DNA from: Euglena gracilis
Taxonomy: Eukaryota
Direction of reading: 5' to 3'
Length of the DNA stretch: 64,000 nt
Assembly (NCBI GenBank): GCA_039621445.1
Contig: CP154954.1
Span: 1,674,001 to 1,738,000 of the forward strand
The position numbers and the translations under genes are program-made. Below are positions 613 through 45,679 of the stretch, piece by piece; the first letter of the stretch is position 1, and every line of letters starts with the position of its first letter. Below the pieces are notes generated by a model that worked only from the letters and a program-made list of their open reading frames with translations, ran no database searches and was not told where the DNA came from.

Positions 613-10646
<10,034 letters not shown>

Positions 10647-13873: not shown

Positions 13874-14172
13874 ATTATCTTGGAAAGTAAACATCTTTTA
13901 TCTGGCAGAAATAACCAACCAGTTCTTCCATCCGGACTTGACGTATGGATGGATTATGGATGGATACAACCTGATTGAGCAATAGAATCGAATCTAAGCA
14001 TTTCCTCGGCAATGGGTTCACTTCCTTTTTACCCTTTAAGAAATTACGTATGCATTAGCCACACACATAGCTAAATAGAAAGCAGTTTGTGTGGTTCTTT
14101 GGATTACAATAAACGTTACGGAATTTAACCATAAAGTACTTAATAATTAATAAATCAGGGTTAATAATCAAT
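13874..14172 (-). pseudogene. Decayed inverted paralogue of the C-terminal part of ORF381
   Basis: - strand translates to LSTLWLNSVTFIVIQRTTQTAFYLAMCVANAYVIS*, matching ORF381 LSTLWLTPRTFIVMKRIVQTGFYLSMCVANAYAIAE. Confidence 0.85.
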
Positions 14173-14181
14173 AAAAAACCA

Positions 14182-14284
14182 TAAGGCGTAGGTCTCCAAA
14201 ACCTGATGTAGTAGGTTCGAATCCTACAAAGCGCGCTTTTAGTGTACACATTATAGTAAATGTGCCCCTTGCTTGGTCACCAAG
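14182..14284 (+). repeat. Orphan copy of the rRNA-operon leader (pseudo-trnW 3' part plus downstream leader)
   Basis: Matches 19810-19912 and 31650-31752. Confidence 0.92.
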
Positions 14285-14320
14285 GGGACTGATGTAGAAA
14301 ATATTCAGTAAAGACCATTT

Positions 14321-15205
14321 AAGTACATTGGTATATATAGTATATATAATATATATAAGTACATTAATATATATAAGTACATTGGTATATATAGTATATA
14401 TAATATATATAAGTACATTAATATATATAAGTACATTGGTATATATAGTATATATAATATATATAAGTACATTAATATATATAAGTACATTGGTATATAT
14501 AGTATATATAATATATATAAGTACATTAATATATAAGTACATACATTAATATATATAAGTACATTGGTATATATAGTATATATAATATATATAAGTACAT
14601 TAATATATATAAGTACATTGGTATATATAGTATATATAATATATAAGTACATTAATATATATAAGTACATTGGTAGATATAGTATATCTAATATATATAA
14701 TTATATTAATATATATAAGTACATTGGTATATATAGTATATATAATATATATAAGTACATTAATATATATAAGTACATTGGTATATATAGTATATATAAT
14801 ATATATAAGTACATTAATATATATAAGTACATGGTATATATAGTATATATAATATATATAAGTACATTAATATATATAAGTACATTGGTATATATAGTAT
14901 ATATAATATATATAAGTACATTAATATATATAAGTACATTGGTATATATAGTATATATAATATATATAAGTACATTAATATATATAAGTACATTGGTATA
15001 TATAGTATATATAATATATATAAGTACATTAATATATATAAGTACATTGGTATATATAGTATATATAATATATATAAGTACATTAATATATATAAGTACA
15101 TTGGTATATATAGTATATATAATATATATAAGTACATTAATATATATAAGTATATTGGTATATATATTATATATTATATATAAGTACATTAAATATATAA
15201 GTACA
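14321..15205. repeat. VNTR of ~16 copies of a 54-bp unit; putative replication-origin region
   Basis: Unit AAGTACATTGGTATATAT-AGTATATATAATATATAT-AAGTACATTAATATATAT; A-rich to T-rich switch of the + strand across it; origin assignment from established E. gracilis knowledge. Confidence 0.95.
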
Positions 15206-15375
15206 GGGTTTTTTTTGTTGCTTCGGGAAAATTTATTTAATTATTTAATTTATGATTAATTTTAGTTATTGATTATTTTATTTTTTTTATTTTTTTTTTT
15301 TTTTTTTTTATTTGATTAAGAATTATTATTTTTTTTTTTTTTATAGCAAAAAAAACGATTTCTTATATTCATTTT

Positions 15376-16521
15376 ATGATTTTTACGATGTATTTCTTTA
15401 GAAATTTTGTTTTTTTACACTCTTTTATGAACTATATAATTAAAGTAAAATCTATTTTAATTAATCGATATTCGTTGGCTACCTGCAATGCAATTTTATT
15501 GTATTTTTTTCAAACAAATTATTATAAAATTTATTTGTTAGTTAATACTAGTTTATCTTTTTACAATTTAATTTTTTTCCTTAGGAATTTTCTAAGGATA
15601 GTAAAAAAAAAAAACGATCCAAAAGTTTTTCTTTTGGCTTTATTGATAATTTCGAAAAATTATATCCAATATGCGCTTTACTGTAATTTTTTGTTTCAAG
15701 TTGGTAACAGAACATTAAAAGTAATCAAGTCCGTTGAAATTTCTAAAAATGAAATTTTGAAAAACGACCCTTCGTTGAAGGCTTTGGAGTTTTGGAAAAA
15801 AATTAAAATATTTTATAGTAAGAATTTTATTTCCAAAATTGCCGTAATTATGGTAATTAGTTTTTCTGGTTATTGCGCATTTAATTTTGCATTTAAATTT
15901 TTTGGTGTACTTAAAGAATCTTCAAAAATCTTGGCTTCTTTTTTCTCTTTTAATCATGATCAAAAAAATGATAATTCTGAAGACAATCGTTCCGAAGATG
16001 ATTTAAAGTCAAGTCAAGACCCAGTAAATATTCCTTCTATCGAACAAAGTTTCAAAGTTGAAGATTTTTCAATTTTCAATCCTGATTTTTGGTCAACTGA
16101 TTTTGATAAAATTTTATTGGAAGAGGGTTATGACCTAGAGGGTTCATTAAGCACTTTATGGTTAACTCCAAGAACATTTATTGTGATGAAAAGGATCGTG
16201 CAAACTGGTTTCTATTTAAGTATGTGTGTAGCTAATGCATATGCAATTGCTGAAACCGTAAAAAGAGGTCAGCCGGTTAGCAATGATATGTTACAATTTA
16301 ATCCGACTTTGCAAACAGGATTTGTCTACCCATACGGGCAGTCAATGTCAGCACCCGGTCAAATACCTGGGGGGAATTTGGGCCGAACGTTTGTTCCTGA
16401 AGAAAAAATGTTTACTTCACAAGATCTAGCAGTTTCATCCAACTGTAATGTGGGGGATGGATTTGTTGAGGTTATAGAAATCCCATTTAATTATTATAAG
16501 GATGCATTACCCCCCGAGTAA
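15376..16521 (+). CDS. Orphan ORF381, hydrophobic N-half, acidic linker, conserved C-terminal block
   Basis: 381-aa open frame; protein-level conservation with the paralogue at 13874-14172. Confidence 0.7.
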   Translation: MIFTMYFFRNFVFLHSFMNYIIKVKSILINRYSLATCNAILLYFFQTNYYKIYLLVNTSLSFYNLIFFLRNFLRIVKKKNDPKVFLLALLIISKNYIQYALYCNFLFQVGNRTLKVIKSVEISKNEILKNDPSLKALEFWKKIKIFYSKNFISKIAVIMVISFSGYCAFNFAFKFFGVLKESSKILASFFSFNHDQKNDNSEDNRSEDDLKSSQDPVNIPSIEQSFKVEDFSIFNPDFWSTDFDKILLEEGYDLEGSLSTLWLTPRTFIVMKRIVQTGFYLSMCVANAYAIAETVKRGQPVSNDMLQFNPTLQTGFVYPYGQSMSAPGQIPGGNLGRTFVPEEKMFTSQDLAVSSNCNVGDGFVEVIEIPFNYYKDALPPE

Positions 16522-16850
16522 TATTCCTTTCTATTTTCGATTTCAAAGAAAAATATCAATATATTAAATTTTTTATGTATTAAATAACTTGATACATAAT
16601 TATTAGTAGTCACTACGTTTTTTATACGTAATATTATTTCTTTAACACATGGTTTTTTATATAAAAATAGGTCAATTTTTTTTATTATTTTTTTTAGAAA
16701 AAAAAAAATGCTTTGTAGACTATGTGGTAACTACATTTCAGTATCGTAATTAGTACGACAGCTCGAATTTGGGTTTTGCAATTTTTTTTTTCATTTTTTT
16801 TTTTTTTTTGCAAATAGGGGGGGTTGTTCTAAAATTCGGTGATTTTATTT

Positions 16851-16989
16851 ATGGGAGATTTTTATGCATTCAATAGTGCCGGGTAAAAATTGGCATGTTT
16901 TTATTAAGACAGGATTCGGTAGTTTTGAGGATTTTAACTTATTATTCATCAAAAAAAGCAATTTCTTACATTTTATTTATGATTTTTAG
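16851..16989 (+). pseudogene. Truncated duplicate of the ORF351 N-terminus
   Basis: 16864-16989 encodes MHSIVPGKNWHVFIKTGFGSFEDFNLLFIKK..., near-identical to ORF351 aa 6-36. Confidence 0.85.
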
Positions 16990-17423
16990 GATGTATTTAT
17001 TCAGAAAATTTATTTTTTTCTTTAAGCAAAACTGTGTTATTTTTTTTGCTTATATATTTTTCCTTGATTCCAGAGTTCTTGCAATTTACTTCGGGATTTT
17101 TTAAAATTTAACCTACAACGAAATTGTAGTTAAGATATATTTTAATGATCTATTTTTTTATATTTTTTAAAAAGTTGTTATTTGTTATTATTTTTTTTTT
17201 CAATTAAGATTTTTATATTTTTCACACTCATTTTTTTTAAAAAAAATTATTATTATAAAAAAAAAATCCTTAATTGGTAACGTTGTGATTATGTTACTTC
17301 ATCGTAGTGGGTCGCAAGTTCGAATTGAAGGTTTGCAAATTTTTTTTTTCATTTTTTTTTTTTTTTTGCATAATGGAGATATGGAAGTTTGAGGTTTTCA
17401 AAAAATGATTTATTTTTTTATTT

Positions 17424-18479
17424 ATGGGAGATTTTATTATGTATTCAATGGTTCCAGGAAAAAACTGGCATGTTTTTATTAAAACAGGGTTCGGTAGTTT
17501 TGAGGATTTTAACTTATTATTCATCAAAAAGTGGAAAGAGTTAATTAATTATAACTCTATTTCTTTTATTATTTATGGTTTTGATTTGTCTGAAAATAAT
17601 TTAAACAACTTTTGTGAAGTGACTATAGAGGTCTATATAGAATTTAATAAAAATTACCGAAGGCATGGTCTTAAAAAATTATTTTCTTTTGAAAAAAATT
17701 CTGTTATTGTAGAAAAGGGATCGAGTAGTAAAACTTCACTTGATAATTTTTTTTCTAAAACAGGGAATAAAAACATTGAAGTTTGTTGGTCAGGTGTTCC
17801 AAGGTTTGAAAATGGTTTAAAAAATTCTTTAAGTTTTGATTTTGTTATTAAAAATAATTTATTAAGTCGTGCGCGAAAAGATCATTGTTTTCCTTCGTTT
17901 TTTTCTAAATTGATTTCCAATTCCTCAGAAAATTATTTAAAAGTGAAAGAAAAAATAACAGAAGAGAAAAAGGAATTAGAAATAAATGATTCTAATAATT
18001 TTTTACACGATCATTTTAATGTTTTGAAAGCTAATGATCAATTTTTAAACATCATTGAAAAATATATAATAGAGTACAAAAATTTGTTTTTTTTAACGAG
18101 TAAAAACGATGCAATAAAACTTCGTTCTATGTTGTTGAAGTATATATCTGAAGTCGCAGTATTAGAAAATAGTATCTCAAATTCTAATATTTCTAATATT
18201 TTTTTATTTAAGCAAGCTTCTAAGTTTTATAAACATAATTCTTTAAAAAACGATAATTATAAAAACTGGGATTTTAACTGGATTTTTGTGGAAATGCTTC
18301 TTATTTTTTTTCTAGAAAAAGCAAAAAATAAAAAAATTGATAAATTTGAATTATATACTTTAGTGAACAAAGAAATTTATGGTGAAGAACAGTTAGATAT
18401 AATGGTTAAAAACTTTAGAAAAAGAGCTTGTGAAAATGTCGATTTACGGCAGATTCGGTCTTCATTGCCTTGTTTTTGA
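17424..18479 (+). CDS. ORF351; N-terminal ~130 aa resemble a circovirus-type HUH Rep endonuclease domain without catalytic residues
   Basis: Intact 351-aa frame; by-eye collinear similarity (KNWHVF, FIIYGFD, IEVYIEFNKNYRRHGLKKLF, VEKGSSSKTSLDNFFSKTG, GVPR). Confidence 0.55.
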   Translation: MGDFIMYSMVPGKNWHVFIKTGFGSFEDFNLLFIKKWKELINYNSISFIIYGFDLSENNLNNFCEVTIEVYIEFNKNYRRHGLKKLFSFEKNSVIVEKGSSSKTSLDNFFSKTGNKNIEVCWSGVPRFENGLKNSLSFDFVIKNNLLSRARKDHCFPSFFSKLISNSSENYLKVKEKITEEKKELEINDSNNFLHDHFNVLKANDQFLNIIEKYIIEYKNLFFLTSKNDAIKLRSMLLKYISEVAVLENSISNSNISNIFLFKQASKFYKHNSLKNDNYKNWDFNWIFVEMLLIFFLEKAKNKKIDKFELYTLVNKEIYGEEQLDIMVKNFRKRACENVDLRQIRSSLPCF

Positions 18480-18819
18480 TTTTTATATAGGGAGAAAAGT
18501 ATGACAAAAAAAGAAGAAAAAAATTTAAATAATACAAAAATCAATTTAACAGTAAAAAAAATTTATAAAAAATATTGTTCTTATAAAGCACAATATGATG
18601 AAAAAAACCTGGACCAAAAATTTAGTTGAAAGCTTTTTTTTTTTATCATTGAAAATGGGCATATTTTAAACGTAGTAGAAGTAGAATATTTTTCTTAAAG
18701 CGTGTCAAAAAAATCGATTAATTAAAATATAGTGTCATGGAAAATGTGATTATTCTATCACTTATTTAAATATGCTTTTTTATCAATGTCAATTTGTAGA
18801 ATAATTGGCGTTTTTTTTG

Positions 18820-19749
18820 ATGGAGTATAGTGAGTTTGCCTACTTTTTACCTTATTAAATTAATAAATTTAAAATTGACTTATTAAAAACTTATAGGGAG
18901 TAAATATTAAGGAAGTACCTTATCAGGATTTTGATAAGTATTCTCACTATTGAGGTTAAATATGGATTAGTTGATTATGCGTTAGTACGAGAATTTCATA
19001 GAACAGGTGGACCCTCATGTGCATTCGTATTTTATTAAAGAAGTCGATACTAAATTGGCAAATTTTTTCGATATATCTATTGATTCTAAAATTTATAGGC
19101 CAGAGTTAACAATGAGAAAGATTTGCTCGACTATTTAATAAAACAAATATTTAACTTTGTGGATGCTTCAGAAAATTTCATGGCTTCGGAATCAATTCTT
19201 AAAAAATATGGTAAATATTTTCAATATCTTCCTTTGGAAGAAAGGATGATTGAATTAGTGAAAAAAGGGGACATAGAAAATGCTATGTTACTGTTTGAAA
19301 AAGAAAAACCTTCAGAATTTGTATATAAGGGCGACGCTATTGAACGTCAATTAAGAAACATATATTTAAGTACGAGATTAGGTGTGAAATAAAAAATTAA
19401 TTTTAATGAATACATAATACCCAAAGACTTAAGGTGGATGTTGGATATTTATGAATCCCATCTAAATATGGGTAAAAATAAGGTATTTTTAATTTTAGGC
19501 AGTGAACATAGATATTTAATCGATTTTTTCGAATCTTATTTGCAATTTAAAGGCTTTTATCCTTTAGTAGTTAAGAAATCCAAGGATTTACTGAAATTAA
19601 ACAATACTTATCATTATGATGCGATAATTTTTGTCAACTCAAATATCCTTGAATATCAAAATGTAAATGAGATAAAAAACATGTTCAACTCTTTAGAAAC
19701 GACGTTAACTGCTTATTATGGAATAAATAAATGTAGGGTCGTGGATTAA
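18820..19749 (+). pseudogene. Decayed geminivirus/pCRESS-type rolling-circle Rep gene
   Basis: YFLPY (motif I), REFHRTGG/PHVHSY (HUH motif II across a +1 shift), NFFDI (GRS-like), DYLIK (motif III), helical central domain, degenerate Walker A/B; 3 in-frame stops and 2 compensating frameshifts. Confidence 0.72.
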
Positions 19750-19944
19750 AGCCTTTCGTTCAACTTGCATGTGTTAAGCATAGCTAAATATTGCTTTTCG
19801 TTAAAATTGTAAGGCGTAGGTCTCCAAAACCTGATGTAGTAGGTTCGAATCCTACAAAGCGCGCTTTTAGTGTACACATTATAGTAAATGTGCCCCTTGC
19901 TTGGTCACCAAGAGGGTGAAAGGATTTGACCAACTTTGATGTTT
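19733..19944 (+). promoter_or_regulatory. Variant leader of the first rRNA operon (pseudo-trnI 3' remnant, antisense 16S insert, pseudo-trnW 19811-19863)
   Basis: Alignment to the leaders at 25628-25863 and 31552-31784. Confidence 0.8.
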
Positions 19945-20693
19945 TGGAAATGACGAGTTTGATCCTTGCTCAGGGTGAACGCTGGCGGTATGCTTAACAC
20001 ATGCAAGTTGAACGAAATTACTAGCAATAGTAATTTAGTGGCGGACGGGTGAGTAATATGTAAGAATCTGCGCTTGGGTGAGGAATAACAGATGGAAACG
20101 TTTGCTAATGCCTCATAATTTACTAGATCTATGTGAGTAGCTAGTTAAAGAGAATTTCGCCTAGGCATGAGCTTGCATCTGATTAGCTTGTTGGTGAGGT
20201 AAAGGCTTACCAAGGCGACGATCAGTAGCTGATTTGAGAGGATGATCAGCCACACTGGGATTGAGAACGGAACAGACTTTTACGGAAGGCAGCAGTGAGG
20301 AATTTTCCGCAATGGGCGCAAGCCTGACGGAGCAATACCGCGTGAAGGAAGAAGGCCTTTGGGTTGTAAACTTCTTTTCTCAAAGAAGAAGAAATGACGG
20401 TATTTGAGGAATAAGCATCGGCTAATTCCGTGCCAGCAGCCGCGGTAATACGGGAGATGCGAGCGTTATCCGGAATTATTGGGCGTAAAGAGTTTGTAGG
20501 CGGTCAAGTGTGTTTAATGTTAAAAGTCAAAGCTTAACTTTGGAAGGGCATTAAAAACTGCTAGACTTGAGTATGGTAGGGGTGAAGGGAATTTCCAGTG
20601 TAGCGGTGAAATGCGTAGAGATTGGAAAGAACACCAATGGCGAAGGCACTTTTCTAGGCCAATACTGACGCTGAGAAACGAAACGAAAGCTGA

Positions 20694-20725
<32 letters not shown>

Positions 20726-20818
20726 TTGGCCGTAAACTATGGATACTAAGTGGTGCTGAAAGTGCACTGCTGTAGTTAACACGTTAAGTATCCCGCCTGG
20801 GGAGTACGCTTGCACAAG

Positions 20819-20899
<81 letters not shown>

Positions 20900-20967
20900 A
20901 GGATTTGACAGGATCTAGGAGGAAGTTTGAAAGAACGCAGTACCTTCGGGTATCTAGACACAGGTGG

Positions 20968-21019
<52 letters not shown>

Positions 21020-21279
21020 CCTTTTTTTTAATTAACGCTTGTCATTTAGAAATACTGCTGGTTATTACCAGAGGAAGGTGAGGACGACGTCAAGTCATCA
21101 TGCCCCTTATATCCTGGGCTACACACGTGCTACAATGGTTAAGACAATAAGTTGCAATTTTGTGAAAATGAGCTAATCTTAAAACTTAGCCTAAGTTCGG
21201 ATTGTAGGCTGAAACTCGCCTACATGAAGCCGGAATCGCTAGTAATCGCCGGTCAGCTATACGGCGGTGAATACGTTCT

Positions 21280-21316
<37 letters not shown>

Positions 21317-21436
21317 TGGCTGTGCCCGAAGTTATTATCTTGCCTGAAAAGAGGGAAATACCTAAGGCCTGGCTGGTGACTGGGGTGAAGTCGTAACAAG
21401 GTAGCCGTACTGGAAGGTGTGGCTGGAACAACTCCC
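19945..21436 (+). rRNA. rrs: 16S rRNA, variant copy with 9-nt deletion and 5-nt duplication
   Basis: GAGTTTGATC, GTGCCAGCAGCCGCGGTAA, GTACACACCGCCCGTC, AAGTCGTAACAAGG. Confidence 0.97.
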
Positions 21437-21522
21437 TTTAGTTTTTTAACTAAAAAAATGTATAGATTGAAAACAATGAAAAATAAAAAAAATAAGTAGG
21501 GAAACCTCTTATTTTTCCAAGA

Positions 21523-21596
21523 GGGCTATTAGCTCAGTTGGTTAGAGCATACCCTTGATAAGGGTAAGGTCGCTAGTTCAAGTCTAGCATGGCCCT
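21523..21596 (+). tRNA. trnI: tRNA-Ile(GAU)
   Basis: Cloverleaf, anticodon GAT, in the 16S-23S spacer. Confidence 0.96.
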
Positions 21597-21605
21597 CTTG
21601 GTTTT

Positions 21606-21678
21606 GGGGGTATAGCTCAGTTGGTAGAGCGCTGCCTTTGCAAGGCAGATGTCAGCGGTTCGAGTCCGCTTATCTCCA
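21606..21678 (+). tRNA. trnA: tRNA-Ala(UGC)
   Basis: Cloverleaf, anticodon TGC. Confidence 0.96.
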
Positions 21679-21694
21679 AAAAGGTTTTGATGTA

Positions 21695-23616
21695 GGTTCA
21701 AATGAACAAGGGCTTATGCGGGATTGCTTGGCATTTAGAGTCGAAGAAGGGCGTAGAAATTAACGATATGCTTTAGGGAGCTAAAGACGAGCTTTAATCT
21801 AAAGATTCCCGAATGGGGCAACCTATTACTTTAACATTACAATGAAATGGTATACAAATAATGTAGAGAACTTGGTGAACTGAAACATCTTAGTAGCCGA
21901 AGGAAAAGAAAGCAAAAGCGATTTTCTTATTAGTGGCGAGCTAACGGAAATCAGCCTAAACCTTTATGGGTGTTGTGGGTATATTATAATTACTGAAAAA
22001 GATAGAGAATTTGTTGAAAACAAAATCAAAGAGGGTTTTAAATCCCGTATTTGTTTTTAAAAAGTAATTTTTGATTTTCCCGAGTAGCATAGAGCACGTG
22101 GAATTCTGTGTGAATCAGCGAGGACCATCTCGTAAGGCTAAATACTCCTAAATGACCGATAGTGTACGAGTACCGTGAGGGAAAGCTGAAATAGAACACT
22201 GAGAAGTGAGTGAAATAGAATATGAAAGCATAAGTTTACAAGCAGTAGGAGATCTATTTAAAGATTGACTGTGTGCCTGTTGAAGAATGAGCCGGCGACT
22301 TATAGGTGATGGCAAGGTTAAGGTTTTTCCGGAGCCATAGTGAAATCGAGCTTAAATAAAGCGAAAAACTTTCTTCTTGAAAGTTTATGTCATTGCTTAT
22401 AGACCCGAACCCAGGTGATCTAATCATGGTCAGGTTGAAGTTTTGGTAAAACAGAATGGAGGACCGAACCCACCAATGTTGAAAAATTGGGGGATGAACT
22501 GTGATTAGGGGAGAAATTCCAATCGAACTTGGAGCTAGCTGGATCTCTTCGAAATGCGTTGAGGCGCAGCGTTTAATTATGGTAAACATTAGGGGTAAAG
22601 CACTGTTTCGATGCGGGCTATGAAAATGGTACCAAGTTGTGGCAAACTCTGAATACTAAGTTATATTTCAATTAATCAGTGAGACAGTGGGGGATAAGCT
22701 TCATTGTCAAGAGGGAAACAGCCCAGATCACTACTTAAGGCCCCTAAATAATTACTAAGTGGTAAAGGATGTACTATTACATAGACAACCAGGAGGTTGG
22801 CTTAGAAGCAGCCATTCCTTTAAAAAGTGCGTAATAGCTTACTGGTCAAGTGATAGTGCGCCGAAAATGAACGGGACTAAGTAATTTGCCGAAGGTGTGA
22901 GAGAAATCGGTAGAAGAGCGTTCTGTGTTGAAGAGAAGGAATAGTGAAAATAGTTCTGGATTAAACAGAAGTGAGAATGTCGGCTTAAGTAACGAAAACA
23001 TTGGTGAAAATCCTATGCTCCGAAAACCTAAGGTTTCCTTAGCCAGGTTCGTCCTCTAAGGGTTAGTCAGGTCCTAAAATAAGGTTTAACAACGTAAATT
23101 GATGGATGACAGGTTAATATTCCTGTACCGAATGCTCACTTGTAAGGAGTGACGAAAAAGGCTAGATCGGCCACGTGATGGTTTGTGGTTTAAGGGTTCA
23201 AGAGGTATCAAATATTAAAAAAAATATTTTGTCTTAAGGCCTGAATAGTATAAATACTACGGTATTGAAAGTGATTGATGTCATGTTTCCAAGAAAAACT
23301 TTTGTTTATGTATAGTGAGCTCGCCTGTACCGTAAACTGACACAGGTAGGTTAGTAGAATATACTAAGGAGCGCGAGATAACTCTTTCTAAGGAACTCGG
23401 CAAAATGACTTCGTAACTTCGGAAGAAGAAGTACCTCTAATGAGGTGGCAGAAAAGAGGTCCAAGCGACTGCTTACCAAAAGCACAGGTCTCCGCGAAGT
23501 TGAAAAACCATGTATGGGGGCCGAGGCCTGCTCAGTGCAGGAAGGTTAAAGAAATTGGTTAGCGTAAGCAAAGCTAGTGACTGAAGCCCCTGTGAACAGC
23601 GGCAATAACTATAATT

Positions 23617-23669
<53 letters not shown>

Positions 23670-24157
23670 TTAACGATTTGGACACTGTCTCAGAAAGAGA
23701 CTCGGTGAAATAGAATTGACTGTGAAGATGCGGTCTACTTGCACTTGGACAGAAAGACCCTATGAAGCTTTACTGTATCCTGAAATTGGTTTCGGGCTTT
23801 TTTTGCGCAGAATAGGTGGGAGGCTATGATCTTGTCTTTTGGGATACGGGGAGCCGAAAAATGAGATACCACTCTGAGAAAGCTAGAAATCTAATCTTAA
23901 TCTTATGTACAATCATGATAATTGACAGTTTCAGGCGGGCAGTTTTACTGGGGCGGTAGCCTCCTAAAAAGTAACGGAGGCGTACAAAGGTTTTCTCAGG
24001 CTAGACGGAAATTAGTTGTGGAGTGTAAAGGCATAAGAAAGCTTGACTGTGAGACTTATAAGTCAAACAGAGACTAAAGTCGGTCTTAGTGACCCGACGG
24101 TGCTGTATGGAAAGGCCGTCGTAAACAGATAAAAGTTACTCTAGGGATAACAGGCTG

Positions 24158-24217
<60 letters not shown>

Positions 24218-24234
24218 ACCTGGGGCGGTAGTAC

Positions 24235-24269
<35 letters not shown>

Positions 24270-24585
24270 TACGTGAGCTGGGTTCAGAACGTCGAGAGAC
24301 AGTTCGGTCCATATCCGGTGTGAGCGTTAGAGTATTGAAAGGCGCTTTCCTTAGTACGAGAGGACCGGGAAGGACGCACCACTGATGTACCAGTTTTTGT
24401 GCCAACAGAATACGCTGGGTAGTCAAGTGCGGAGTGGATAACTGCTGAAAGCATATAAGTAGGAAGCCCACCTTAAGATAAGTACTCTTCATAGGTCACG
24501 GTAAGACGAACCGTTTGATAGGTATTAGGTGTACAATTGGTAACAATTTTAGCCGAGATATACTAACCGACCGAAAATTTTTTCC
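21695..24585 (+). rRNA. rrl: 23S rRNA (ends approximate)
   Basis: GAACTGAAACATCTTAGTA, CCTAAGGTAGCGAAATTCC, sarcin-ricin AGTACGAGAGGACC. Confidence 0.97.
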
Positions 24586-24660
24586 TATATGAAAACAAAA
24601 CATTTATTTTTACTTGTCACTTTTTTAAGATTTAAAAGTTTCTTGAATGAACTTTTATTT

Positions 24661-24776
24661 TAGGGTGCTCTTGTCTTTATGGATCCACTTAAAACATTTC
24701 GAACTTGCAAGTTAAACATAAAGGGTAAATAGATACTTGAAAGGTTACTTTCCGGGAAAAGATTTTAGTGCCCTTA
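24661..24776 (+). rRNA. rrf: 5S rRNA
   Basis: ~116 nt with complementary ends (AGGGTGC/GTGCCCT) downstream of 23S. Confidence 0.88.
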
Positions 24777-25461
24777 TGGGAAGTTTAATTTATTTAATTG
24801 TCTCTTAGTGAGTTTATTTATTAATATTAACTCGATTTTCGAGTAATTTTTATGACTGCCGTTACGTTAGTGTTTTATTGCATGGATAAATGTATTGTGG
24901 TATAATTAAACCAAGGAATTTGTCAAACCACGTTTCCTTTAAGTTTGAATTTTTTTTGGCCAAAACATGATGCTTCCGAAAAAATAAGACAATCTGTTTA
25001 TAGAAATCAGTGAATTTCGTAATATTTTTCTTTTAAAATTTTAAACGATATGAATAATATCCTCGAGTGTTTGGAAAATGACTATGTTTCTTCGCTAATA
25101 TAAAAGATTAATCACAAAATTCAACAAGATAGGTTGAATCATAGTGAGAATATTAGGTAATCTTCTGATAAGAGTTTTATTTTGTTGTACATTATAGTTA
25201 TTGCTACTTTGTATTTGGTTCTTTGTGTTATGTGTGTGCTTTTTAGTTGTAAATTTTTTGCTAGTAAGAAGCGTGTCGTTCATTGTCGATTTGGACGAAT
25301 ATTTATAAAATGCTACAAGAGACCAAAATGTCTTTATACTTCTTATATTGCTGCTGAGTACCCTATATTTTGTGATATTGAAAAATATTAAGGTAAGGTT
25401 CCTAGACTTTCATACGTAAATGCTCATGCGCACAGTTTAGGTGTTATGCTTTTATCCCTGA

Positions 25462-25488
25462 TCTTGTGAATTCTTTTCATTCACAAGA
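25462..25488. other. 10-bp stem-loop in the inter-operon spacer (repeated at ~31386-31412)
   Basis: TCTTGTGAAT-7nt-ATTCACAAGA. Confidence 0.55.
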
Positions 25489-25627
25489 AATAACTTAGCT
25501 TAATTCCTAGTGTAAATTTTTCCGTACTTTAACGTGTGGCTGGGACAATTTTTTTATTTTTAATTAAAATACCGTATAAATTTTAAAAAATAAAAAAATC
25601 AAAAGGAAAATTTTTTATTTTTCAAAG

Positions 25628-25702
25628 ATCACTATTATCTTTTATTATTATAGAATACCTTTGATAAGGGTAGGGTCGTGGATTGAATCCTTGTATTAGC
25701 CA
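25628..25702 (+). pseudogene. pseudo-trnI in rRNA leader
   Basis: ATACCTTTGATAAGGGTAGGGTCG resembles the trnI anticodon arm; other arms decayed. Confidence 0.75.
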
Positions 25703-25726
25703 AATATTTCTTTTCTTTAAAATCCT

Positions 25727-25782
25727 AAGGCGTAGGTCTCCAAAACCTGATGTAGTAGTAGGTTCGAATCCTACAAAGCGCG
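25727..25782 (+). pseudogene. pseudo-trnW (3' two-thirds) in rRNA leader
   Basis: Matches trnW 62765-62813 apart from a 3-nt duplication and one substitution. Confidence 0.85.
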
Positions 25783-25863
25783 CTTTTAGTGGGCACATTA
25801 TAGTAAATGTGCCCCTTGCTTGGTCACCAAGAGGGTGAGAGGATTTGACCAACTTTGATGTTT

Positions 25864-26608
25864 TGGAAATGACGAGTTTGATCCTTGCTCAGGGTGAACG
25901 CTGGCGGTATGCTTAACACATGCAAGTTGAACGAAATTACTAGCAATAGTAATTTAGTGGCGGACGGGTGAGTAATATGTAAGAATCTGCGCTTGGGTGA
26001 GGAATAACAGATGGAAACGTTTGCTAATGCCTCATAATTTACTAGATCTATGTGAGTAGCTAGTTAAAGAGAATTTCGCCTAGGCATGAGCTTGCATCTG
26101 ATTAGCTTGTTGGTGAGGTAAAGGCTTACCAAGGCGACGATCAGTAGCTGATTTGAGAGGATGATCAGCCACACTGGGATTGAGAACGGAACAGACTTCT
26201 ACGGAAGGCAGCAGTGAGGAATTTTTCCGCAATGGGCGCAAGCCTGACGGAGCAATACCGCGTGAAGGAAGACGGCCTTTGGGTTGTAAACTTCTTTTCT
26301 CAAAGAAGAAGAAATGACGGTATTTGAGGAATAAGCATCGGCTAATTCCGTGCCAGCAGCCGCGGTAATACGGGAGATGCGAGCGTTATCCGGAATTATT
26401 GGGCGTAAAGAGTTTGTAGGCGGTCAAGTGTGTTTAATGTTAAAAGTCAAAGCTTAACTTTGGAAGGGCATTAAAAACTGCTAGACTTGAGTATGGTAGG
26501 GGTGAAGGGAATTTCCAGTGTAGCGGTGAAATGCGTAGAGATTGGAAAGAACACCAATGGCGAAGGCACTTTTCTAGGCCAATACTGACGCTGAGAAACG
26601 AAAGCTGA

Positions 26609-26640
<32 letters not shown>

Positions 26641-26733
26641 TTGGCCGTAAACTATGGATACTAAGTGGTGCTGAAAGTGCACTGCTGTAGTTAACACGTT
26701 AAGTATCCCGCCTGGGGAGTACGCTTGCACAAG

Positions 26734-26814
<81 letters not shown>

Positions 26815-26882
26815 AGGATTTGACAGGATCTAGGAGGAAGTTTGAAAGAACGCAGTACCTTCGGGTATCTAGACACAGGTGG

Positions 26883-26947
<65 letters not shown>

Positions 26948-27203
26948 TTTTTTAATTAACGCTTGTCATTTAGAAATACTGCTGGTTATTACCGGAGGAA
27001 GGTGAGGACGACGTCAAGTCATCATGCCCCTTATATCCTGGGCTACACACGTGCTACAATGGTTAAGACAATAAGTTGCAATTTTGTGAAAATGAGCTAA
27101 TCTTAAAACTTAGCCTAAGTTCGGATTGTAGGCTGAAACTCGCCTACATGAAGCCGGAATCGCTAGTAATCGCCGGTCAGCTATACGGCGGTGAATACGT
27201 TCT

Positions 27204-27241
<38 letters not shown>

Positions 27242-27360
27242 GGCTGTGCCCGAAGTTATTATCTTGCCTGAAAAGAGGGAAATACCTAAGGCCTGGCTGG
27301 TGACTGGGGTGAAGTCGTAACAAGGTAGCCGTACTGGAAGGTGTGGCTGGAACAACTCCC
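25864..27360 (+). rRNA. rrs: 16S rRNA
   Basis: Universal 16S motifs; intact CGCAACGAGCGCAACCC. Confidence 0.97.
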
Positions 27361-27446
27361 TTTAGTTTTTTAACTAAAAAAATGTATAGATTGGAAACAA
27401 TGAAAAATAAAAAAAATAAGTAGGGAAACCTCTTATTTTTCCAAGA

Positions 27447-27520
27447 GGGCTATTAGCTCAGTTGGTTAGAGCATACCCTTGATAAGGGTAAGGTCGCTAG
27501 TTCAAGTCTAGCATGGCCCT
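27447..27520 (+). tRNA. trnI: tRNA-Ile(GAU)
   Basis: Same as first copy. Confidence 0.96.
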
Positions 27521-27529
27521 CTTGGTTTT

Positions 27530-27602
27530 GGGGGTATAGCTCAGTTGGTAGAGCGCTGCCTTTGCAAGGCAGATGTCAGCGGTTCGAGTCCGCTTATCTC
27601 CA
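27530..27602 (+). tRNA. trnA: tRNA-Ala(UGC)
   Basis: Same as first copy. Confidence 0.96.
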
Positions 27603-27618
27603 AAAAGGTTTTGATGTA

Positions 27619-29540
27619 GGTTCAAATGAACAAGGGCTTATGCGGGATTGCTTGGCATTTAGAGTCGAAGAAGGGCGTAGAAATTAACGATATGCTTTAG
27701 GGAGCTAAAGACGAGCTTTAATCTAAAGATTCCCGAATGGGGCAACCTATTACTTTAACATTACAATGAAATGGTATACAAATAATGTAGAGAACTTGGT
27801 GAACTGAAACATCTTAGTAGCCGAAGGAAAAGAAAGCAAAAGCGATTTTCTTATTAGTGGCGAGCTAACGGAAATCAGCCTAAACCTTTATGGGTGTTGT
27901 GGGTATATTATAATTACTGAAAAAGATAGAGAATTTGTTGAAAACAAAATCAAAGAGGGTTTTAAATCCCGTATTTGTTTTTAAAAAGTAATTTTTGATT
28001 TTCCCGAGTAGCATAGAGCACGTGGAATTCTGTGTGAATCAGCGAGGACCATCTCGTAAGGCTAAATACTCCTAAATGACCGATAGTGTACGAGTACCGT
28101 GAGGGAAAGCTGAAATAGAACACTGAGAAGTGAGTGAAATAGAATATGAAAGCATAAGTTTACAAGCAGTAGGAGATCTATTTAAAGATTGACTGTGTGC
28201 CTGTTGAAGAATGAGCCGGCGACTTATAGGTGATGGCAAGGTTAAGGTTTTTCCGGAGCCATAGTGAAATCGAGCTTAAATAAAGCGAAAAACTTTCTTC
28301 TTGAAAGTTTATGTCATTGCTTATAGACCCGAACCCAGGTGATCTAATCATGGTCAGGTTGAAGTTTTGGTAAAACAGAATGGAGGACCGAACCCACCAA
28401 TGTTGAAAAATTGGGGGATGAACTGTGATTAGGGGAGAAATTCCAATCGAACTTGGAGCTAGCTGGATCTCTTCGAAATGCGTTGAGGCGCAGCGTTTAA
28501 TTATGGTAAACATTAGGGGTAAAGCACTGTTTCGATGCGGGCTATGAAAATGGTACCAAGTTGTGGCAAACTCTGAATACTAAGTTATATTTCAATTAAT
28601 CAGTGAGACAGTGGGGGATAAGCTTCATTGTCAAGAGGGAAGCAGCCCAGATCACTACTTAAGGCCCCTAAATAATTACTAAGTGGTAAAGGATGTACTA
28701 TTACATAGACAACCAGGAGGTTGGCTTAGAAGCAGCCATTCCTTTAAAAAGTGCGTAATAGCTTACTGGTCAAGTGATAGTGCGCCGAAAATGAACGGGA
28801 CTAAGTAATTTGCCGAAGGTGTGAGAGAAATCGGTAGAAGAGCGTTCTGTGTTGAAGAGAAGGAATAGTGAAAATAGTTCTGGATTAAACAGAAGTGAGA
28901 ATGTCGGCTTAAGTAACGAAAACATTGGTGAAAATCCTATGCTCCGAAAACCTAAGGTTTCCTTAGCCAGGTTCGTCCTCTAAGGGTTAGTCAGGTCCTA
29001 AAATAAGGTTTAACAACGTAAATTGATGGATGACAGGTTAATATTCCTGTACCGAATGCTCACTTGTAAGGAGTGACGAAAAAGGCTAGATCGGCCACGT
29101 GATGGTTTGTGGTTTAAGGGTTCAAGAGGTATCAAATATTAAAAAAAATATTTTGTCTTAAGGCCTGAATAGTATAAATACTACGGTATTGAAAGTGATT
29201 GATGTCATGTTTCCAAGAAAAACTTTTGTTTATGTATAGTGAGCTCGCCTGTACCGTAAACTGACACAGGTAGGTTAGTAGAATATACTAAGGAGCGCGA
29301 GATAACTCTTTCTAAGGAACTCGGCAAAATGACTTCGTAACTTCGGAAGAAGAAGTACCTCTAATGAGGTGGCAGAAAAGAGGTCCAAGCGACTGCTTAC
29401 CAAAAGCACAGGTCTCCGCGAAGTTGAAAAACGATGTATGGGGGCCGAGGCCTGCTCAGTGCAGGAAGGTTAAAGAAATTGGTTAGCGTAAGCAAAGCTA
29501 GTGACTGAAGCCCCTGTGAACAGCGGCAATAACTATAATT

Positions 29541-29593
<53 letters not shown>

Positions 29594-30081
29594 TTAACGA
29601 TTTGGACACTGTCTCAGAAAGAGACTCGGTGAAATAGAATTGACTGTGAAGATGCGGTCTACTTGCACTTGGACAGAAAGACCCTATGAAGCTTTACTGT
29701 ATCCTGAAATTGGTTTCGGGCTTTTTTTGCGCAGAATAGGTGGGAGGCTATGATCTTGTCTTTTGGGATACGGGGAGCCGAAAAATGAGATACCACTCTG
29801 AGAAAGCTAGAAATCTAATCTTAATCTTATGTACAATCATGATAATTGACAGTTTCAGGTGGGCAGTTTTACTGGGGCGGTAGCCTCCTAAAAAGTAACG
29901 GAGGCGTACAAAGGTTTTCTCAGGCTAGACGGAAATTAGTTGTGGAGTGTAAAGGCATAAGAAAGCTTGACTGTGAGACTTATAAGTCAAACAGAGACTA
30001 AAGTCGGTCTTAGTGACCCGACGGTGCTGTATGGAAAGGCCGTCGTAAACAGATAAAAGTTACTCTAGGGATAACAGGCTG

Positions 30082-30141
<60 letters not shown>

Positions 30142-30158
30142 ACCTGGGGCGGTAGTAC

Positions 30159-30193
<35 letters not shown>

Positions 30194-30508
30194 TACGTGA
30201 GCTGGGTTCAGAACGTCGAGAGACAGTTCGGTCCATATCCGGTGTGAGCGTTAGAGTATTGAAAGGCGCTTTCCTTAGTACGAGAGGACCGGGAAGGACG
30301 CACCACTGATGTACCAGTTTTTGTGCCAACAGAATACGCTGGGTAGTCAAGTGCGGAGTGGATAACTGCTGAAAGCATATAAGTAGGAAGCCCACCTTAA
30401 GATAAGTACTCTTCATAGGTCACGGTAAGACGAACCGTTTGATAGGTATTAGGTGTACAATTGGTAACAATTTTAGCCGAGATATACTAACCGACCGAAA
30501 ATTTTTTC
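27619..30508 (+). rRNA. rrl: 23S rRNA (ends approximate)
   Basis: Repeat of first copy. Confidence 0.97.
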
Positions 30509-30584
30509 CTATATGAAAACAAAACATTTATTTTTACTTGTCACTTTTTTAAGATTTAAAAGTTTCTTGAATGAACTTTTATTT

Positions 30585-30700
30585 TAGGGTGCTCTTGTCT
30601 TTATGGATCCACTTAAAACATTTCGAACTTGCAAGTTAAACATAAAGGGTAAATAGATACTTGAAAGGTTACTTTCCGGGAAAAGATTTTAGTGCCCTTA
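30585..30700 (+). rRNA. rrf: 5S rRNA
   Basis: Same as first copy. Confidence 0.88.
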
Positions 30701-31551
30701 TGGGAAGTTTAATTTATTTAATTGTCTCTTAGTGAGTTTATTTATTAATATTAACTCGATTTTCGAGTAATTTTTATGACTGCCGTTACGTTAGTGTTTT
30801 ATTGCATGGATAAATGTATTGTGGTATAATTAAACCAAGGAATTTGTCAAACCACGTTTCCTTTAAGTTTGAATTTTTTTTGGCCAAAACATGATGCTTC
30901 GGAAAAAATAAGACAATCTGTTTATAGAAATCAGTGAATTTCGTAATATTTTTCTTTTAAAATTTTAAACGATATGAATAATATCCTCGAGTGTTTGGAA
31001 AATGACTATGTTTCTTCGCTAATATAAAAGATTAATCACAAAATTCAACAAGATAGGTTGAATCATAGTGAGAATATTAGGTAATCTTCTGATAAGAGTT
31101 TTATTTTGTTGTACATTATAGTTATTGCTACTTTGTATTTGGTTCTTTGTGTTATGTGTGTGCTTTTTAGTTGTAAATCTTTTGCTAGTAAGAAGCGTGT
31201 CGTTCATTGTCGATTTGGACGAATATTTATAAAATGCTACAAGAGACCAAAATGTCTTTATACTTCTTATATTGCTGCTGAGTACCCTATATTTTGTGAT
31301 ATTGAAAAATATTAAGGTAAGGTTCCTAGACTTTCATACGTAAATGCTCATGCGCACAGTTTAGGTGTTATGCTTTTACCCCTGATCTTGTGAATTCTTT
31401 TCATTCACAAGAAATAACTTAGCTTAATTCCTAGTGTAAATTTTTCCGTACTTTAACGTGTGGCTGGGACAATTTTTTTATTTTTAATTAAAATACCGTA
31501 TAAATTTTAAAAAATAAAAAAATCAAAAGGAAAATTTTTTATTTTTCAAAG

Positions 31552-31626
31552 ATCACTATTATCTTTTATTATTATAGAATACCTTTGATAAGGGTAGGGT
31601 CGTGGATTGAATCCTTGTATTAGCCA
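31552..31626 (+). pseudogene. pseudo-trnI in rRNA leader
   Basis: Repeat of 25628-25702. Confidence 0.75.
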
Positions 31627-31650
31627 AATATTTCTTTTCTTTAAAATCCT

Positions 31651-31703
31651 AAGGCGTAGGTCTCCAAAACCTGATGTAGTAGGTTCGAATCCTACAAAGC
31701 GCG
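31651..31703 (+). pseudogene. pseudo-trnW in rRNA leader
   Basis: Matches the 3' part of trnW. Confidence 0.85.
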
Positions 31704-31784
31704 CTTTTAGTGTACACATTATAGTAAATGTGCCCCTTGCTTGGTCACCAAGAGGGTGAGAGGATTTGACCAACTTTGATGTTT

Positions 31785-32529
31785 TGGAAATGACGAGTTT
31801 GATCCTTGCTCAGGGTGAACGCTGGCGGTATGCTTAACACATGCAAGTTGAACGAAATTACTAGCAATAGTAATTTAGTGGCGGACGGGTGAGTAATATG
31901 TAAGAATCTGCGCTTGGGCGAGGAATAACAGATGGAAACGTTTGCTAATGCCTCATAATTTACTAGATCTATGTGAGTAGCTAGTTAAAGAGAATTTCGC
32001 CTAGGCATGAGCTTGCATCTGATTAGCTTGTTGGTGAGGTAAAGGCTTACCAAGGCGACGATCAGTAGCTGATTTGAGAGGATGATCAGCCACACTGGGA
32101 TTGAGAACGGAACAGACTTCTACGGAAGGCAGCAGTGAGGAATTTTCCGCAATGGGCGCAAGCCTGACGGAGCAATACCGCGTGAAGGAAGACGGCCTTT
32201 GGGTTGTAAACTTCTTTTCTCAAAGAAGAAGAAATGACGGTATTTGAGGAATAAGCATCGGCTAATTCCGTGCCAGCAGCCGCGGTAATACGGGAGATGC
32301 GAGCGTTATCCGGAATTATTGGGCGTAAAGAGTTTGTAGGCGGTCAAGTGTGTTTAATGTTAAAAGTCAAAGCTTAACTTTGGAAGGGCATTAAAAACTG
32401 CTAGACTTGAGTATGGTAGGGGTGAAGGGAATTTCCAGTGTAGCGGTGAAAATGCGTAGAGATTGGAAAGAACACCAATGGCGAAGGCACTTTTCTAGGC
32501 CAATACTGACGCTGAGAAACGAAAGCTGA

Positions 32530-32561
<32 letters not shown>

Positions 32562-32654
32562 TTGGCCGTAAACTATGGATACTAAGTGGTGCTGAAAGTG
32601 CACTGCTGTAGTTAACACGTTAAGTATCCCGCCTGGGGAGTACGCTTGCACAAG

Positions 32655-32735
<81 letters not shown>

Positions 32736-32803
32736 AGGATTTGACAGGATCTAGGAGGAAGTTTGAAAGAACGCAGTACCTTCGGGTATCTAGACACAGG
32801 TGG

Positions 32804-32868
<65 letters not shown>

Positions 32869-33124
32869 TTTTTTAATTAACGCTTGTCATTTAGAAATAC
32901 TGCTGGTTATTACCGGAGGAAGGTGAGGACGACGTCAAGTCATCATGCCCCTTATATCCTGGGCTACACACGTGCTACAATGGTTAAGACAATAAGTTGC
33001 AATTTTGTGAAAATGAGCTAATCTTAAAACTTAGCCTAAGTTCGGATTGTAGGCTGAAACTCGCCTACATGAAGCCGGAATCGCTAGTAATCGCCGGTCA
33101 GCTATACGGCGGTGAATACGTTCT

Positions 33125-33162
<38 letters not shown>

Positions 33163-33281
33163 GGCTGTGCCCGAAGTTATTATCTTGCCTGAAAAGAGGG
33201 AAATACCTAAGGCCTGGCTGGTGACTGGGGTGAAGTCGTAACAAGGTAGCCGTACTGGAAGGTGTGGCTGGAACAACTCCC
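31785..33281 (+). rRNA. rrs: 16S rRNA
   Basis: Universal 16S motifs. Confidence 0.97.
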
Positions 33282-33367
33282 TTTAGTTTTTTAACTAAAA
33301 AAATGTATAGATTGGAAACAATGAAAAATAAAAAAAATAAGTAGGGAAACCTCTTATTTTTCCAAGA

Positions 33368-33441
33368 GGGCTATTAGCTCAGTTGGTTAGAGCATACCCT
33401 TGATAAGGGTAAGGTCGCTAGTTCAAGTCTAGCATGGCCCT
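33368..33441 (+). tRNA. trnI: tRNA-Ile(GAU)
   Basis: Cloverleaf, GAT. Confidence 0.96.
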
Positions 33442-33450
33442 CTTGGTTTT

Positions 33451-33523
33451 GGGGGTATAGCTCAGTTGGTAGAGCGCTGCCTTTGCAAGGCAGATGTCAG
33501 CGGTTCGAGTCCGCTTATCTCCA
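33451..33523 (+). tRNA. trnA: tRNA-Ala(UGC)
   Basis: Cloverleaf, TGC. Confidence 0.96.
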
Positions 33524-33539
33524 AAAAGGTTTTGATGTA

Positions 33540-35461: not shown

Positions 35462-35514
<53 letters not shown>

Positions 35515-36002
35515 TTAACGATTTGGACACTGTCTCAGAAAGAGACTCGGTGAAATAGAATTGACTGTGAAGATGCGGTCTACTTGCACTTGGACAGAAA
35601 GACCCTATGAAGCTTTACTGTATCCTGAAATTGGTTTCGGGCTTTTTTTGCGCAGAATAGGTGGGAGGCTATGATCTTGTCTTTTGGGATACGGGGAGCC
35701 GAAAAATGAGATACCACTCTGAGAAAGCTAGAAATCTAATCTTAATCTTATGTACAATCATGATAATTGACAGTTTCAGGTGGGCAGTTTTACTGGGGCG
35801 GTAGCCTCCTAAAAAGTAACGGAGGCGTACAAAGGTTTTCTCAGGCTAGACGGAAATTAGTTGTGGAGTGTAAAGGCATAAGAAAGCTTGACTGTGAGAC
35901 TTATAAGTCAAACAGAGACTAAAGTCGGTCTTAGTGACCCGACGGTGCTGTATGGAAAGGCCGTCGTAAACAGATAAAAGTTACTCTAGGGATAACAGGC
36001 TG

Positions 36003-36062
<60 letters not shown>

Positions 36063-36079
36063 ACCTGGGGCGGTAGTAC

Positions 36080-36114
<35 letters not shown>

Positions 36115-36430
36115 TACGTGAGCTGGGTTCAGAACGTCGAGAGACAGTTCGGTCCATATCCGGTGTGAGCGTTAGAGTATTGAAAGGCGCTTTCCTTAGT
36201 ACGAGAGGACCGGGAAGGACGCACCACTGATGTACCAGTTTTTGTGCCAACAGAATACGCTGGGTAGTCAAGTGCGGAGTGGATAACTGCTGAAAGCATA
36301 TAAGTAGGAAGCCCACCTTAAGATAAGTACTCTTCATAGGTCACGGTAAGACGAACCGTTTGATAGGTATTAGGTGTACAATTGGTAACAATTTTAGCCG
36401 AGATATACTAACCGACCGAAAATTTTTTCC
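33540..36430 (+). rRNA. rrl: 23S rRNA (ends approximate)
   Basis: Repeat of other copies. Confidence 0.97.

Positions 36431-42217: not shown

Positions 42218-45679
<3,462 letters not shown>

Follow-up and report, generated by a model that had tools for sequence, protein, structure and literature searches.

The DNA analysed here (the window) is a stretch of 64,000 nucleotides of the chloroplast genome of Euglena gracilis (GenBank assembly GCA_039621445.1, contig CP154954.1, positions 1,674,001 to 1,738,000), and all coordinates below are those of the window. It carries three tandem ribosomal RNA (rRNA) operons, with 16S genes at 19947, 25866 and 31787 and, behind each of them, trnI, trnA, 23S and 5S; rpoB with its introns is found downstream, chlI upstream and rps4 elsewhere in the window. 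Just 5' of the first rRNA operon, between 18940 and 19732 of the forward strand, lie four colinear pieces of a broken coding sequence. We regard these, with high confidence, as a non-functional, 3'-truncated pseudogene derived from a geminivirus-type Rep (replication-associated protein), in which a HUH nuclease domain is followed by a superfamily-3 helicase domain. A first-pass annotation, made from the sequence alone, had proposed such an identity, and the relationship is supported through relatives of the relic, as set out below.

The relic and its reading frames

The 50 relatives that reach 300 residues or more served to build a hidden Markov model, with which the 3324 six-frame segments of the window were searched. 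The four pieces of the relic were the four best segments and stood in colinear order (Table 1). A read-through of the pieces, with X for each stop or break, matched the profile as a single domain (139.6 bits, E 2e-41) over positions 50–277 of 381, and the window holds nothing past profile position 281. The homology of the relic to proteins bearing the Gemini_AL1 domain is significant and colinear across both domains. Chance likeness of an AT-rich plastid spacer to Rep motifs might be argued from the absence of a direct Pfam match and from an unsupported motif I; it is countered by the read-through score, by HMMER E-values down to 7e-25 in a search of 1.8 billion proteins, and by the N-terminal 65 residues (18904–19096, X at the shift), which scored 24.7 bits against a maximum of 5.5 among 2000 shuffles, none of which reached it. 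We count this explanation as refuted and its probability as close to nil.

The annotation had listed a HUH motif, an FFD region, a YxxK motif and degenerate Walker A and B elements, and all of these align to the profile where they were expected. Motif II (His-hydrophobic-His) is present as 'PHVHSYF' (19013–19033) opposite the profile's 'khlHvyi'. Between motifs II and III geminivirus Reps have the geminivirus Rep sequence (GRS); here 'DTKLANFFDI' stands opposite 'diknpnfLdl', and the subsequent 'fhGnYq' part is missing at the second frame break. Motif III, with the catalytic Tyr (YxxK), reads 'LLDYLIKQ' opposite 'vieYilKd', its Tyr and Lys being invariant in the family alignment. In the helicase part the Walker A consensus GxxxxGK[ST] is absent ('LILGSEHRYLIDFF' opposite 'vliGkpGtGKtqll'), and Walker B is degenerate ('AIIFVN' opposite 'aIifDD') with no Asp-Asp.

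Table 1. Coordinates of the relic, its breaks and the adjoining rRNA leader, with the profile matches of the six-frame segments
Feature	Position	Strand	Profile positions	Score	Remarks
Possible decayed 5' end	18805..18939	+			ATG at 18820; 'YFLPY' at 18841-55; stops at 18856 and 18901; no detectable homology
Relic piece 1	18940..19011	+	50-71		Frame of 18904; precedes the HUH motif, '...VKYGLVDYALVREFHRTGG'
First frame break (+1)	19009..19015	+			Between pieces 18904-19038 and 18986-19138
Relic piece 2	19013..19096	+	67-106		Frame +1 relative to piece 1; HVH 19016-19024; NFFDI 19061-19075
Second frame break, return to first frame	19097..19104	+			ORF333 (P0003) continuous here in one frame
Relic piece 3	19105..19389	+		81.2 bits	Catalytic-Tyr motif YLIK 19132-19143; central helical (oligomerisation-type) region
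In-frame TAA	19390..19392	+			Ala at this place in ORF281/ORF333
Relic piece 4	19393..19732	+		25 bits	Helicase-domain remnant; Walker A equivalent 'GSEHRYLI' 19498-19521; Walker B equivalent 'AIIFVN' 19621-19638
5'-truncated leader of rRNA operon 1	19733..19946	+			Starts inside pseudo-trnI; pseudo-tRNA 19791-19863 (Rfam tRNA, 37.4 bits)
Profile match of segment	18904..19035		51-71	E 0.22	
Profile match of segment	18986..19135		67-106	E 0.018	
Profile match of segment	19099..19389		108-196	E 1.2e-23	
Profile match of segment	19393..19746		203-281	E 1.4e-6	

The relic has no intact open reading frame (ORF): its frame is broken twice, it contains in-frame stops and its 3' part is cut off. The stop-to-stop pieces 18904–19038, 19099–19392 and 19393–19749 share one frame, and 18986–19138 lies one base ahead of it. 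Piece 1 is a close match to the relative P0029 ('DYALVREFHEDGSPHLH'), and piece 2 matches the N-terminus of ORF333 (P0003), an open paralogue described in the next section. From 19180 on piece 3 is 79% identical to ORF281, the same paralogue in another strain, and the likeness of piece 4 to ORF281 fades beyond about 19710. The TAA codons announced by the annotation at 18856–58, 18901–03 and 19390–92 are all present, the ORFs 19123–19392 and 19438–19749 do share a frame, and the first shift, given as about 19012, falls within 19009–19015. A second shift exists as well, slightly further 5' (19097–19104) than the 19105–19120 that had been suggested. At this second break the window is about 10 nucleotides shorter than the intact paralogue implies and, because P0003 reads in one frame across the region, the break is confirmed.

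The annotation had asked for the stops and shifts to be verified in accurate reads. The relic stretch is contained in 20 runs from 13 studies, no RNA run being listed among them. Contigs of four runs were compared, of which X5 and X6 have listed contigs that lie outside the relic body. Short-read contigs of run X10 cover 18805–19760, including 18947–19384 with 0 differences, and those of run X14 cover 18622–19052 and 19023–19582, again with 0 differences; the two runs belong to two studies, and all three breaks are unchanged in both. The contigs depart from the window only in TCTTT, inserted behind 19725, and in A>G at 19726. This variant recurs in the metagenome ORF P0004, where it alters the last codons before the leader and roughly explains the different C-terminus of that protein. 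Two independent metagenome ORFs meet at one stop, P0005 ending and P0004 starting there, and both are consistent with TAA 19390. The breaks are real.

It could nonetheless be held that errors of assembly or of long reads produced the breaks, or the placement beside the rRNA operon, or that the stretch is a nuclear copy of plastid DNA. The window has features that an uncorrected long-read assembly can show, namely a palindromic rpoC2/tRNA duplication of 98–99% identity and three rRNA operon copies (19781–36645) that are 99.2–99.7% alike and differ by small indels. Against an artefact stand the X10 and X14 contigs (Logan), which reproduce 18805–19760, the three breaks and the 19733 junction with differences at 19725 and 19726 only, the shared stop of P0005 and P0004 together with their reading into the leader, and the occurrence of the stretch in the 20 runs. 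We consider an artefact extremely unlikely.

The relic probably has no present-day role. It is very unlikely, in our estimate, that the relic or a part of it is still in use, whether through expression of the 103-codon ORF 19438–19749 or of ORF 19183–19392, or as a transcript serving the leader of the rRNA operon. Such use would agree with the open stretches of 97 and 118 codons in DNA of 26–29% G+C, where by our own estimate a random stop is expected about every 12 codons, with the conservative character of the substitutions relative to ORF281 (169 of 188 positives), and with the identity of the sequence across contigs of two studies. Opposed to it are the two frame breaks and three in-frame stops, the lost helicase motifs, the absence of about 100 C-terminal codons, and the 5-nucleotide insertion variant at 19725, which gives the 103-codon ORF a different C-terminus. 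Our own rough estimate is that neutral decay, at this divergence, would produce about the one stop in 216 codons that is seen.

The open paralogue and the wider Rep family

When the 216-residue read-through, with X for the TAA, was used in a word-based search, 189 candidates yielded one match: ORF281 of E. gracilis (P0001; P31919, NP_041939.1, EugrCp051) at E 5.3e-90, which its sources list as uncharacterised or hypothetical and which, according to its source's name, is located between rbcL and atpE. Searched against the window by tblastn, P0001 gave 148 of 188 identities (79%) and 169 of 188 positives over 19180–19743, with one in-frame stop, and no other significant match in the window that would indicate a second copy there. 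ORF333 of E. gracilis var. bacillaris (P0003, AKL82394.1; 333 residues) belongs to the same 90% cluster as P0001, reaches 52 residues further N-terminal and is in one frame across the window's second break. It aligns to profile positions 81–366 (150.7 bits), from just past the HUH motif to the C-terminal end.

ORF333 lacks the Walker A Gly-Lys-Ser/Thr, the Asn of motif C and the Arg pair, with 'IMSSK' opposite the profile's 'iisNk' and 'IEMEG' opposite 'ikRRv'. At the Walker A place it reads 'GGELRY', the relic 'GSEHRY' and the profile 'GkpGtGKt'. An AlphaFold2 model of P0003, made with the family alignment, has a pLDDT (predicted local distance difference test) of 88.3. Its best match among solved structures is the papillomavirus E1 helicase (E 5.4e-6); adeno-associated virus 2 (AAV2) Rep40 (E 1.8e-4) ranks below RuvB and DnaC, among other AAA+ proteins, and the TM-scores are modest (0.3–0.4). 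Because the model leans on the family alignment, it is corroborative and no independent proof. Matches of P0003 to AAA+/DnaA-like models in the ESM Atlas (feature scores up to 0.78, TM up to 0.42) are taken as leads only.

The relic and ORF281/ORF333 are 79–80% identical over the part they share, have the same degenerate Walker A and reside in the same genome. They differ in that ORF281/ORF333 is an open frame, with an annotated start after the HUH motif, and runs to the C-terminus of the profile, while the relic retains the HUH stretch yet is broken and is cut at about profile position 281. Judged from these alignments, the likeness shows ORF281/ORF333 to have, in all probability, the same foreign (Rep) origin as the relic. 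Since the loss of Walker A is common to both, it probably preceded the separation of the copies.

Two separate integrations of related replicons, rather than one integration followed by duplication, could also have produced the pair. The copies stand in unrelated contexts, one in the rbcL-atpE spacer (by its source's name) and the other upstream of rrn operon 1, and differ by 21% at the protein level. Common to both, however, is a derived loss, the Gly-Lys-Ser/Thr of Walker A having given way to almost identical residues ('LILGSEHRYLIDFF' and 'LILGGELRYLIDFF'); Walker B is weakened in both, and a free replicon with a dead helicase is improbable. Moreover the copies are 79% alike, whereas any other of the 66 matches described below is at most 37% identical to them. 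Because of the shared degenerate Walker A, and of 79% mutual identity against at most 37% to others, a duplication within the plastome is favoured and two integrations appear unlikely.

An exhaustive HMMER search of 1.84 billion representatives returned 66 proteins at E <= 1e-3, of which 18 were at E <= 1e-10. Three of the 66 are Euglena sequences, namely P0001 and the pair P0004 and P0005, which come from a 1379-bp metagenome contig with the same relic. The Pfam scan covered the 42 longer of the 63 non-Euglena relatives, the other 21 being shorter or lower-ranking. PF00799 (Gemini_AL1, Geminivirus Rep catalytic domain) was found above its 24-bit cut-off in 41 of the 42, always N-terminal, with 28.9–80.1 bits, and most of these proteins have sub-threshold P-loop matches some 200 residues downstream; the sole scanned relative lacking a Pfam match, P0016, is without the N-terminal part. 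PF08283 (Gemini_AL1_M, the central domain) appeared in 4 of the 42, each time below the cut-off. A profile of 40 family members matched the solved Rep nuclease domains 6q1m, 6we0, 6we1, 1l2m, 7vg8 and 7kik at E 1e-27 to 8.5e-23, with 6q1m, 6we0 and 1l2m at E 1e-27 to 4e-24. We take 6q1m and 1l2m to be the Reps of wheat dwarf virus and TYLCV (tomato yellow leaf curl virus); the search labels read 'Replication-associated protein' or 'Rep protein'. A significant tie to gemini-like Rep families, the point on which the annotation had let its proposal stand or fall, is thus provided by relatives that carry PF00799.

Eighteen non-Euglena relatives were looked up; their longest contigs measure 1.1–2.9 kb, which fits small replicons, and bear no informative names. 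The nearest non-Euglena relatives, P0006, P0007 and P0008, have a Lys/Arg-rich extension of 53–185 residues ahead of the Gemini_AL1 domain and lie on contigs of 1.8–2.7 kb that are mostly filled by the Rep gene. Scans of metagenome_contigs and viral_contigs recovered no DNA of related loci. Other Pfam matches of the relic pieces and of P0001 and P0003 were all sub-threshold (4HB_MCP_1, E 0.04; DUF7698, 18 bits against a cut-off of 27; Flu_B_NS1), and DUF7698 was dropped because it is absent from all 42 homologues at E <= 0.01.

Several observations weigh against a derivation from a geminivirus-type Rep. The annotation had read 'YFLPY' as motif I (FLTYP-type), a claim that finds no support: upstream of 18940 nothing aligns to the profile (hmmalign), and 18805–18903 scores -2.7 bits, a value equalled or bettered by 635 of 2000 shuffles. 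The spacing of 'KFKIDLLKTY' (18865–18894) to the next motif would fit the relatives better. The hmmscan against PF00799 and PF08283 that the annotation had proposed gave no match to Gemini_AL1 or Gemini_AL1_M, even at E <= 10, with the four pieces or the 216-residue read-through, and none with the intact paralogues P0001 and P0003; phmmer of P0003 against the sequences of solved structures in the Protein Data Bank (PDB) was likewise negative. As there is no direct Pfam match, the family assignment of the relic is transitive and passes through intermediate relatives. No cognate origin is apparent, ANTATTAC having 29 matches in the window against 24.6 expected and none in 16635–22773, and 16400–19200 holds no convincing hairpin. 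The donor could be a virus or a plasmid, the relatives looked up lying on contigs of 1.1–2.9 kb that bear no informative names. Lastly, the assembly of the window has oddities.

The rRNA junction and the genomic surroundings

The annotation had the relic ending at 19733, where a leader with a pseudo-trnI begins. Alignment and blastn agree: from 19733 on, operon 1 aligns with the operon 2 and 3 leaders, to which it is unrelated further upstream. In operons 2 and 3 the 150 nucleotides ahead of this point resemble the 16S 3' end and trnI (71%); operon 1 thus has a leader truncated within its pseudo-trnI part. The relic for its part is without about 100 C-terminal codons, as the leader is without its 5' part. 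Because both partners are truncated, the junction points to a rearrangement and not to a clean insertion.

The leader of operon 1, and it alone among the three, contains a 29-nucleotide perfect inverted copy of a 5' piece of 16S (19754–19782, matching 25908–25936), which could pair with the 5' region of the following 16S in the precursor RNA. The X10 and X14 contigs have the same inverted copy. The first 16S is 5 nucleotides shorter than the others and scores lower in Rfam, with 1375 bits where the others have about 1424. Strain Z has been described as having an additional 16S gene; none was seen in the window.

ORF 17424–18479, on the relic's strand and immediately upstream of it, is an open frame of 351 codons with about 24% G+C. 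It has no homologue at E <= 0.01 among 2474 candidates and no Pfam family, and it was rejected as part of a Rep element, the frame 17424–18476 having no similarity to the relic and an hhalign probability of 0.2% with the Rep profile. ORF 15376–16518 agrees at 100% identity, for 87% of its length, with a plastid protein of Euglena gracilis, the 'Uncharacterized 40.9 kDa protein in 16S rRNA 3'region' (P0069, ORF350), which marks the window as DNA of E. gracilis or a very close strain. The window frame (15376–16521) counts 381 codons against 350 residues in ORF350 and starts 31 codons earlier. It too was rejected, being not Rep-like (hhalign probability 0.1%). No relatives tie the neighbouring ORFs to a mobile element.

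Further upstream, 3.7 kb from the relic, a tandem array (14320–15205) consists of 49 copies of an 18-nucleotide unit with 13–15% G+C. Directly before it is an isolated copy of the leader pseudo-tRNA part (14175–14287, 93% to 25719–25834), and several long overlapping ORFs at 14168–15259 lie largely in the array and its flank. We take the plastid replication origin of E. gracilis to have been mapped near a variable-size region that lies upstream of the rRNA genes, in which case the array would be that region. The nearness of the Rep relic to this origin region is suggestive. One might go further and imagine that a gemini-like rolling-circle replicon once present in the Euglena plastid integrated beside the plastome origin region, that ORF281/ORF333 is a catalytically dead Rep that was exapted and retained to bind DNA or to oligomerise in the maintenance of plastid DNA, and that the origin region is perhaps itself foreign; we offer this as speculation and think it decidedly unlikely.

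Elsewhere, 45302–49458 of the rpoC2/tRNA/rps4 region recurs inverted at 56107–51933 (98.7%) and direct at 56645–60664 (97.9%), and 49574–55956 recurs inverted at 63027–56645 (99.2%). This palindrome-like duplication (45302–63027) is unusual for this plastome and may reflect either an artefact of fold-back assembly or a rearranged molecule that really exists. On the reverse strand, 1783–3537 holds a match to a group II intron domain (43.5 bits), beside ORFs 1894–3537 (547 codons) and 3775–4728 (317 codons); neither ORF has a Pfam family at E <= 0.001.

Proposed history and comparison with known systems

In the relic we see the molecular fossil of a rolling-circle replicon to which the plastid compartment was once accessible. 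We infer a history in which the Rep gene of a small circular replicon, either a CRESS-type (circular Rep-encoding single-stranded DNA) virus or a plasmid, would have integrated in the plastid genome of an ancestor of E. gracilis. The ATPase motifs were lost, both present copies being without the Walker A Gly-Lys-Ser/Thr. The gene would then have been duplicated within the plastome to give the two copies now seen, one between rbcL and atpE, which has remained open (ORF281 in strain Z, ORF333 in var. bacillaris), and the other 5' of rRNA operon 1. In the upstream copy a nonsense codon and two frame breaks arose and recognisable 5' sequence was lost, and a rearrangement took away about 100 3' codons and joined the relic to a leader cut inside pseudo-trnI.

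A geminivirus-type Rep in a secondary green plastome implies that a small circular replicon once passed three membranes into the Euglena plastid. An origin is also given to ORF281/ORF333, a long-unexplained chloroplast ORF of a model alga, and a second, unannotated copy of it is revealed. The relic is moreover the trace of an old rearrangement at the 5' border of the rRNA operon array. Being a dead gene, it counts for little in terms of function; it is of value for evolution, and as a lead toward plastid-resident single-stranded DNA replicons in euglenids.

In the full-text searches of the literature, which extended to sources other than subscription journals and supplements, no report was found that ties a Euglena plastid ORF to Rep. 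The abstract of Lee et al. (2016; PMC4814812) describes foreign DNA in plastid genomes as rare. What is met with here is an organelle-integrated Rep relic, of a kind already known; new are this case and the origin that it supplies for the orphan ORF281/ORF333.

With geminivirus-type Reps the relic shares the order of the elements: the HUH motif, the FFD stretch, YxxK, the helical centre and the positions of Walker A and Walker B. It departs from them in being broken, in having no detectable motif I, no Walker A Gly-Lys-Ser/Thr and no Asp-Asp, and in missing the last 100 or so residues. The plasmid Reps of phytoplasmas (e.g. NC_015473.1, NC_007717.1) belong with the family as full-length relatives. 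Seven plasmid records, all from phytoplasmas, are matched by P0012, itself a typical full-length member, over 67–83% of its length with 24.9–26.6% identity (E 7e-8 to 1e-5). These, however, are intact genes of bacterial plasmids.

Endogenous geminivirus-like elements of plant nuclear genomes are, in two accounts (PMC7758297, PMC5014472), integrated and often decayed sequences derived from Rep. In that they resemble the relic, but they are nuclear elements of angiosperms, whereas the relic lies in the genome of a secondary green plastid. Among published parallels the closest is provided by the small plasmids of red algae, which, according to PMC4814812, carry geminivirus-related replicase genes; the same source describes virus-derived plasmid genes in nuclear and organellar genomes, such as the mitochondrial orf98 of Phytophthora sojae. 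Its main text makes no mention of Euglena. The parallel belongs to another lineage (rhodophytes and stramenopiles), and for the Euglena case no free plasmid is known.

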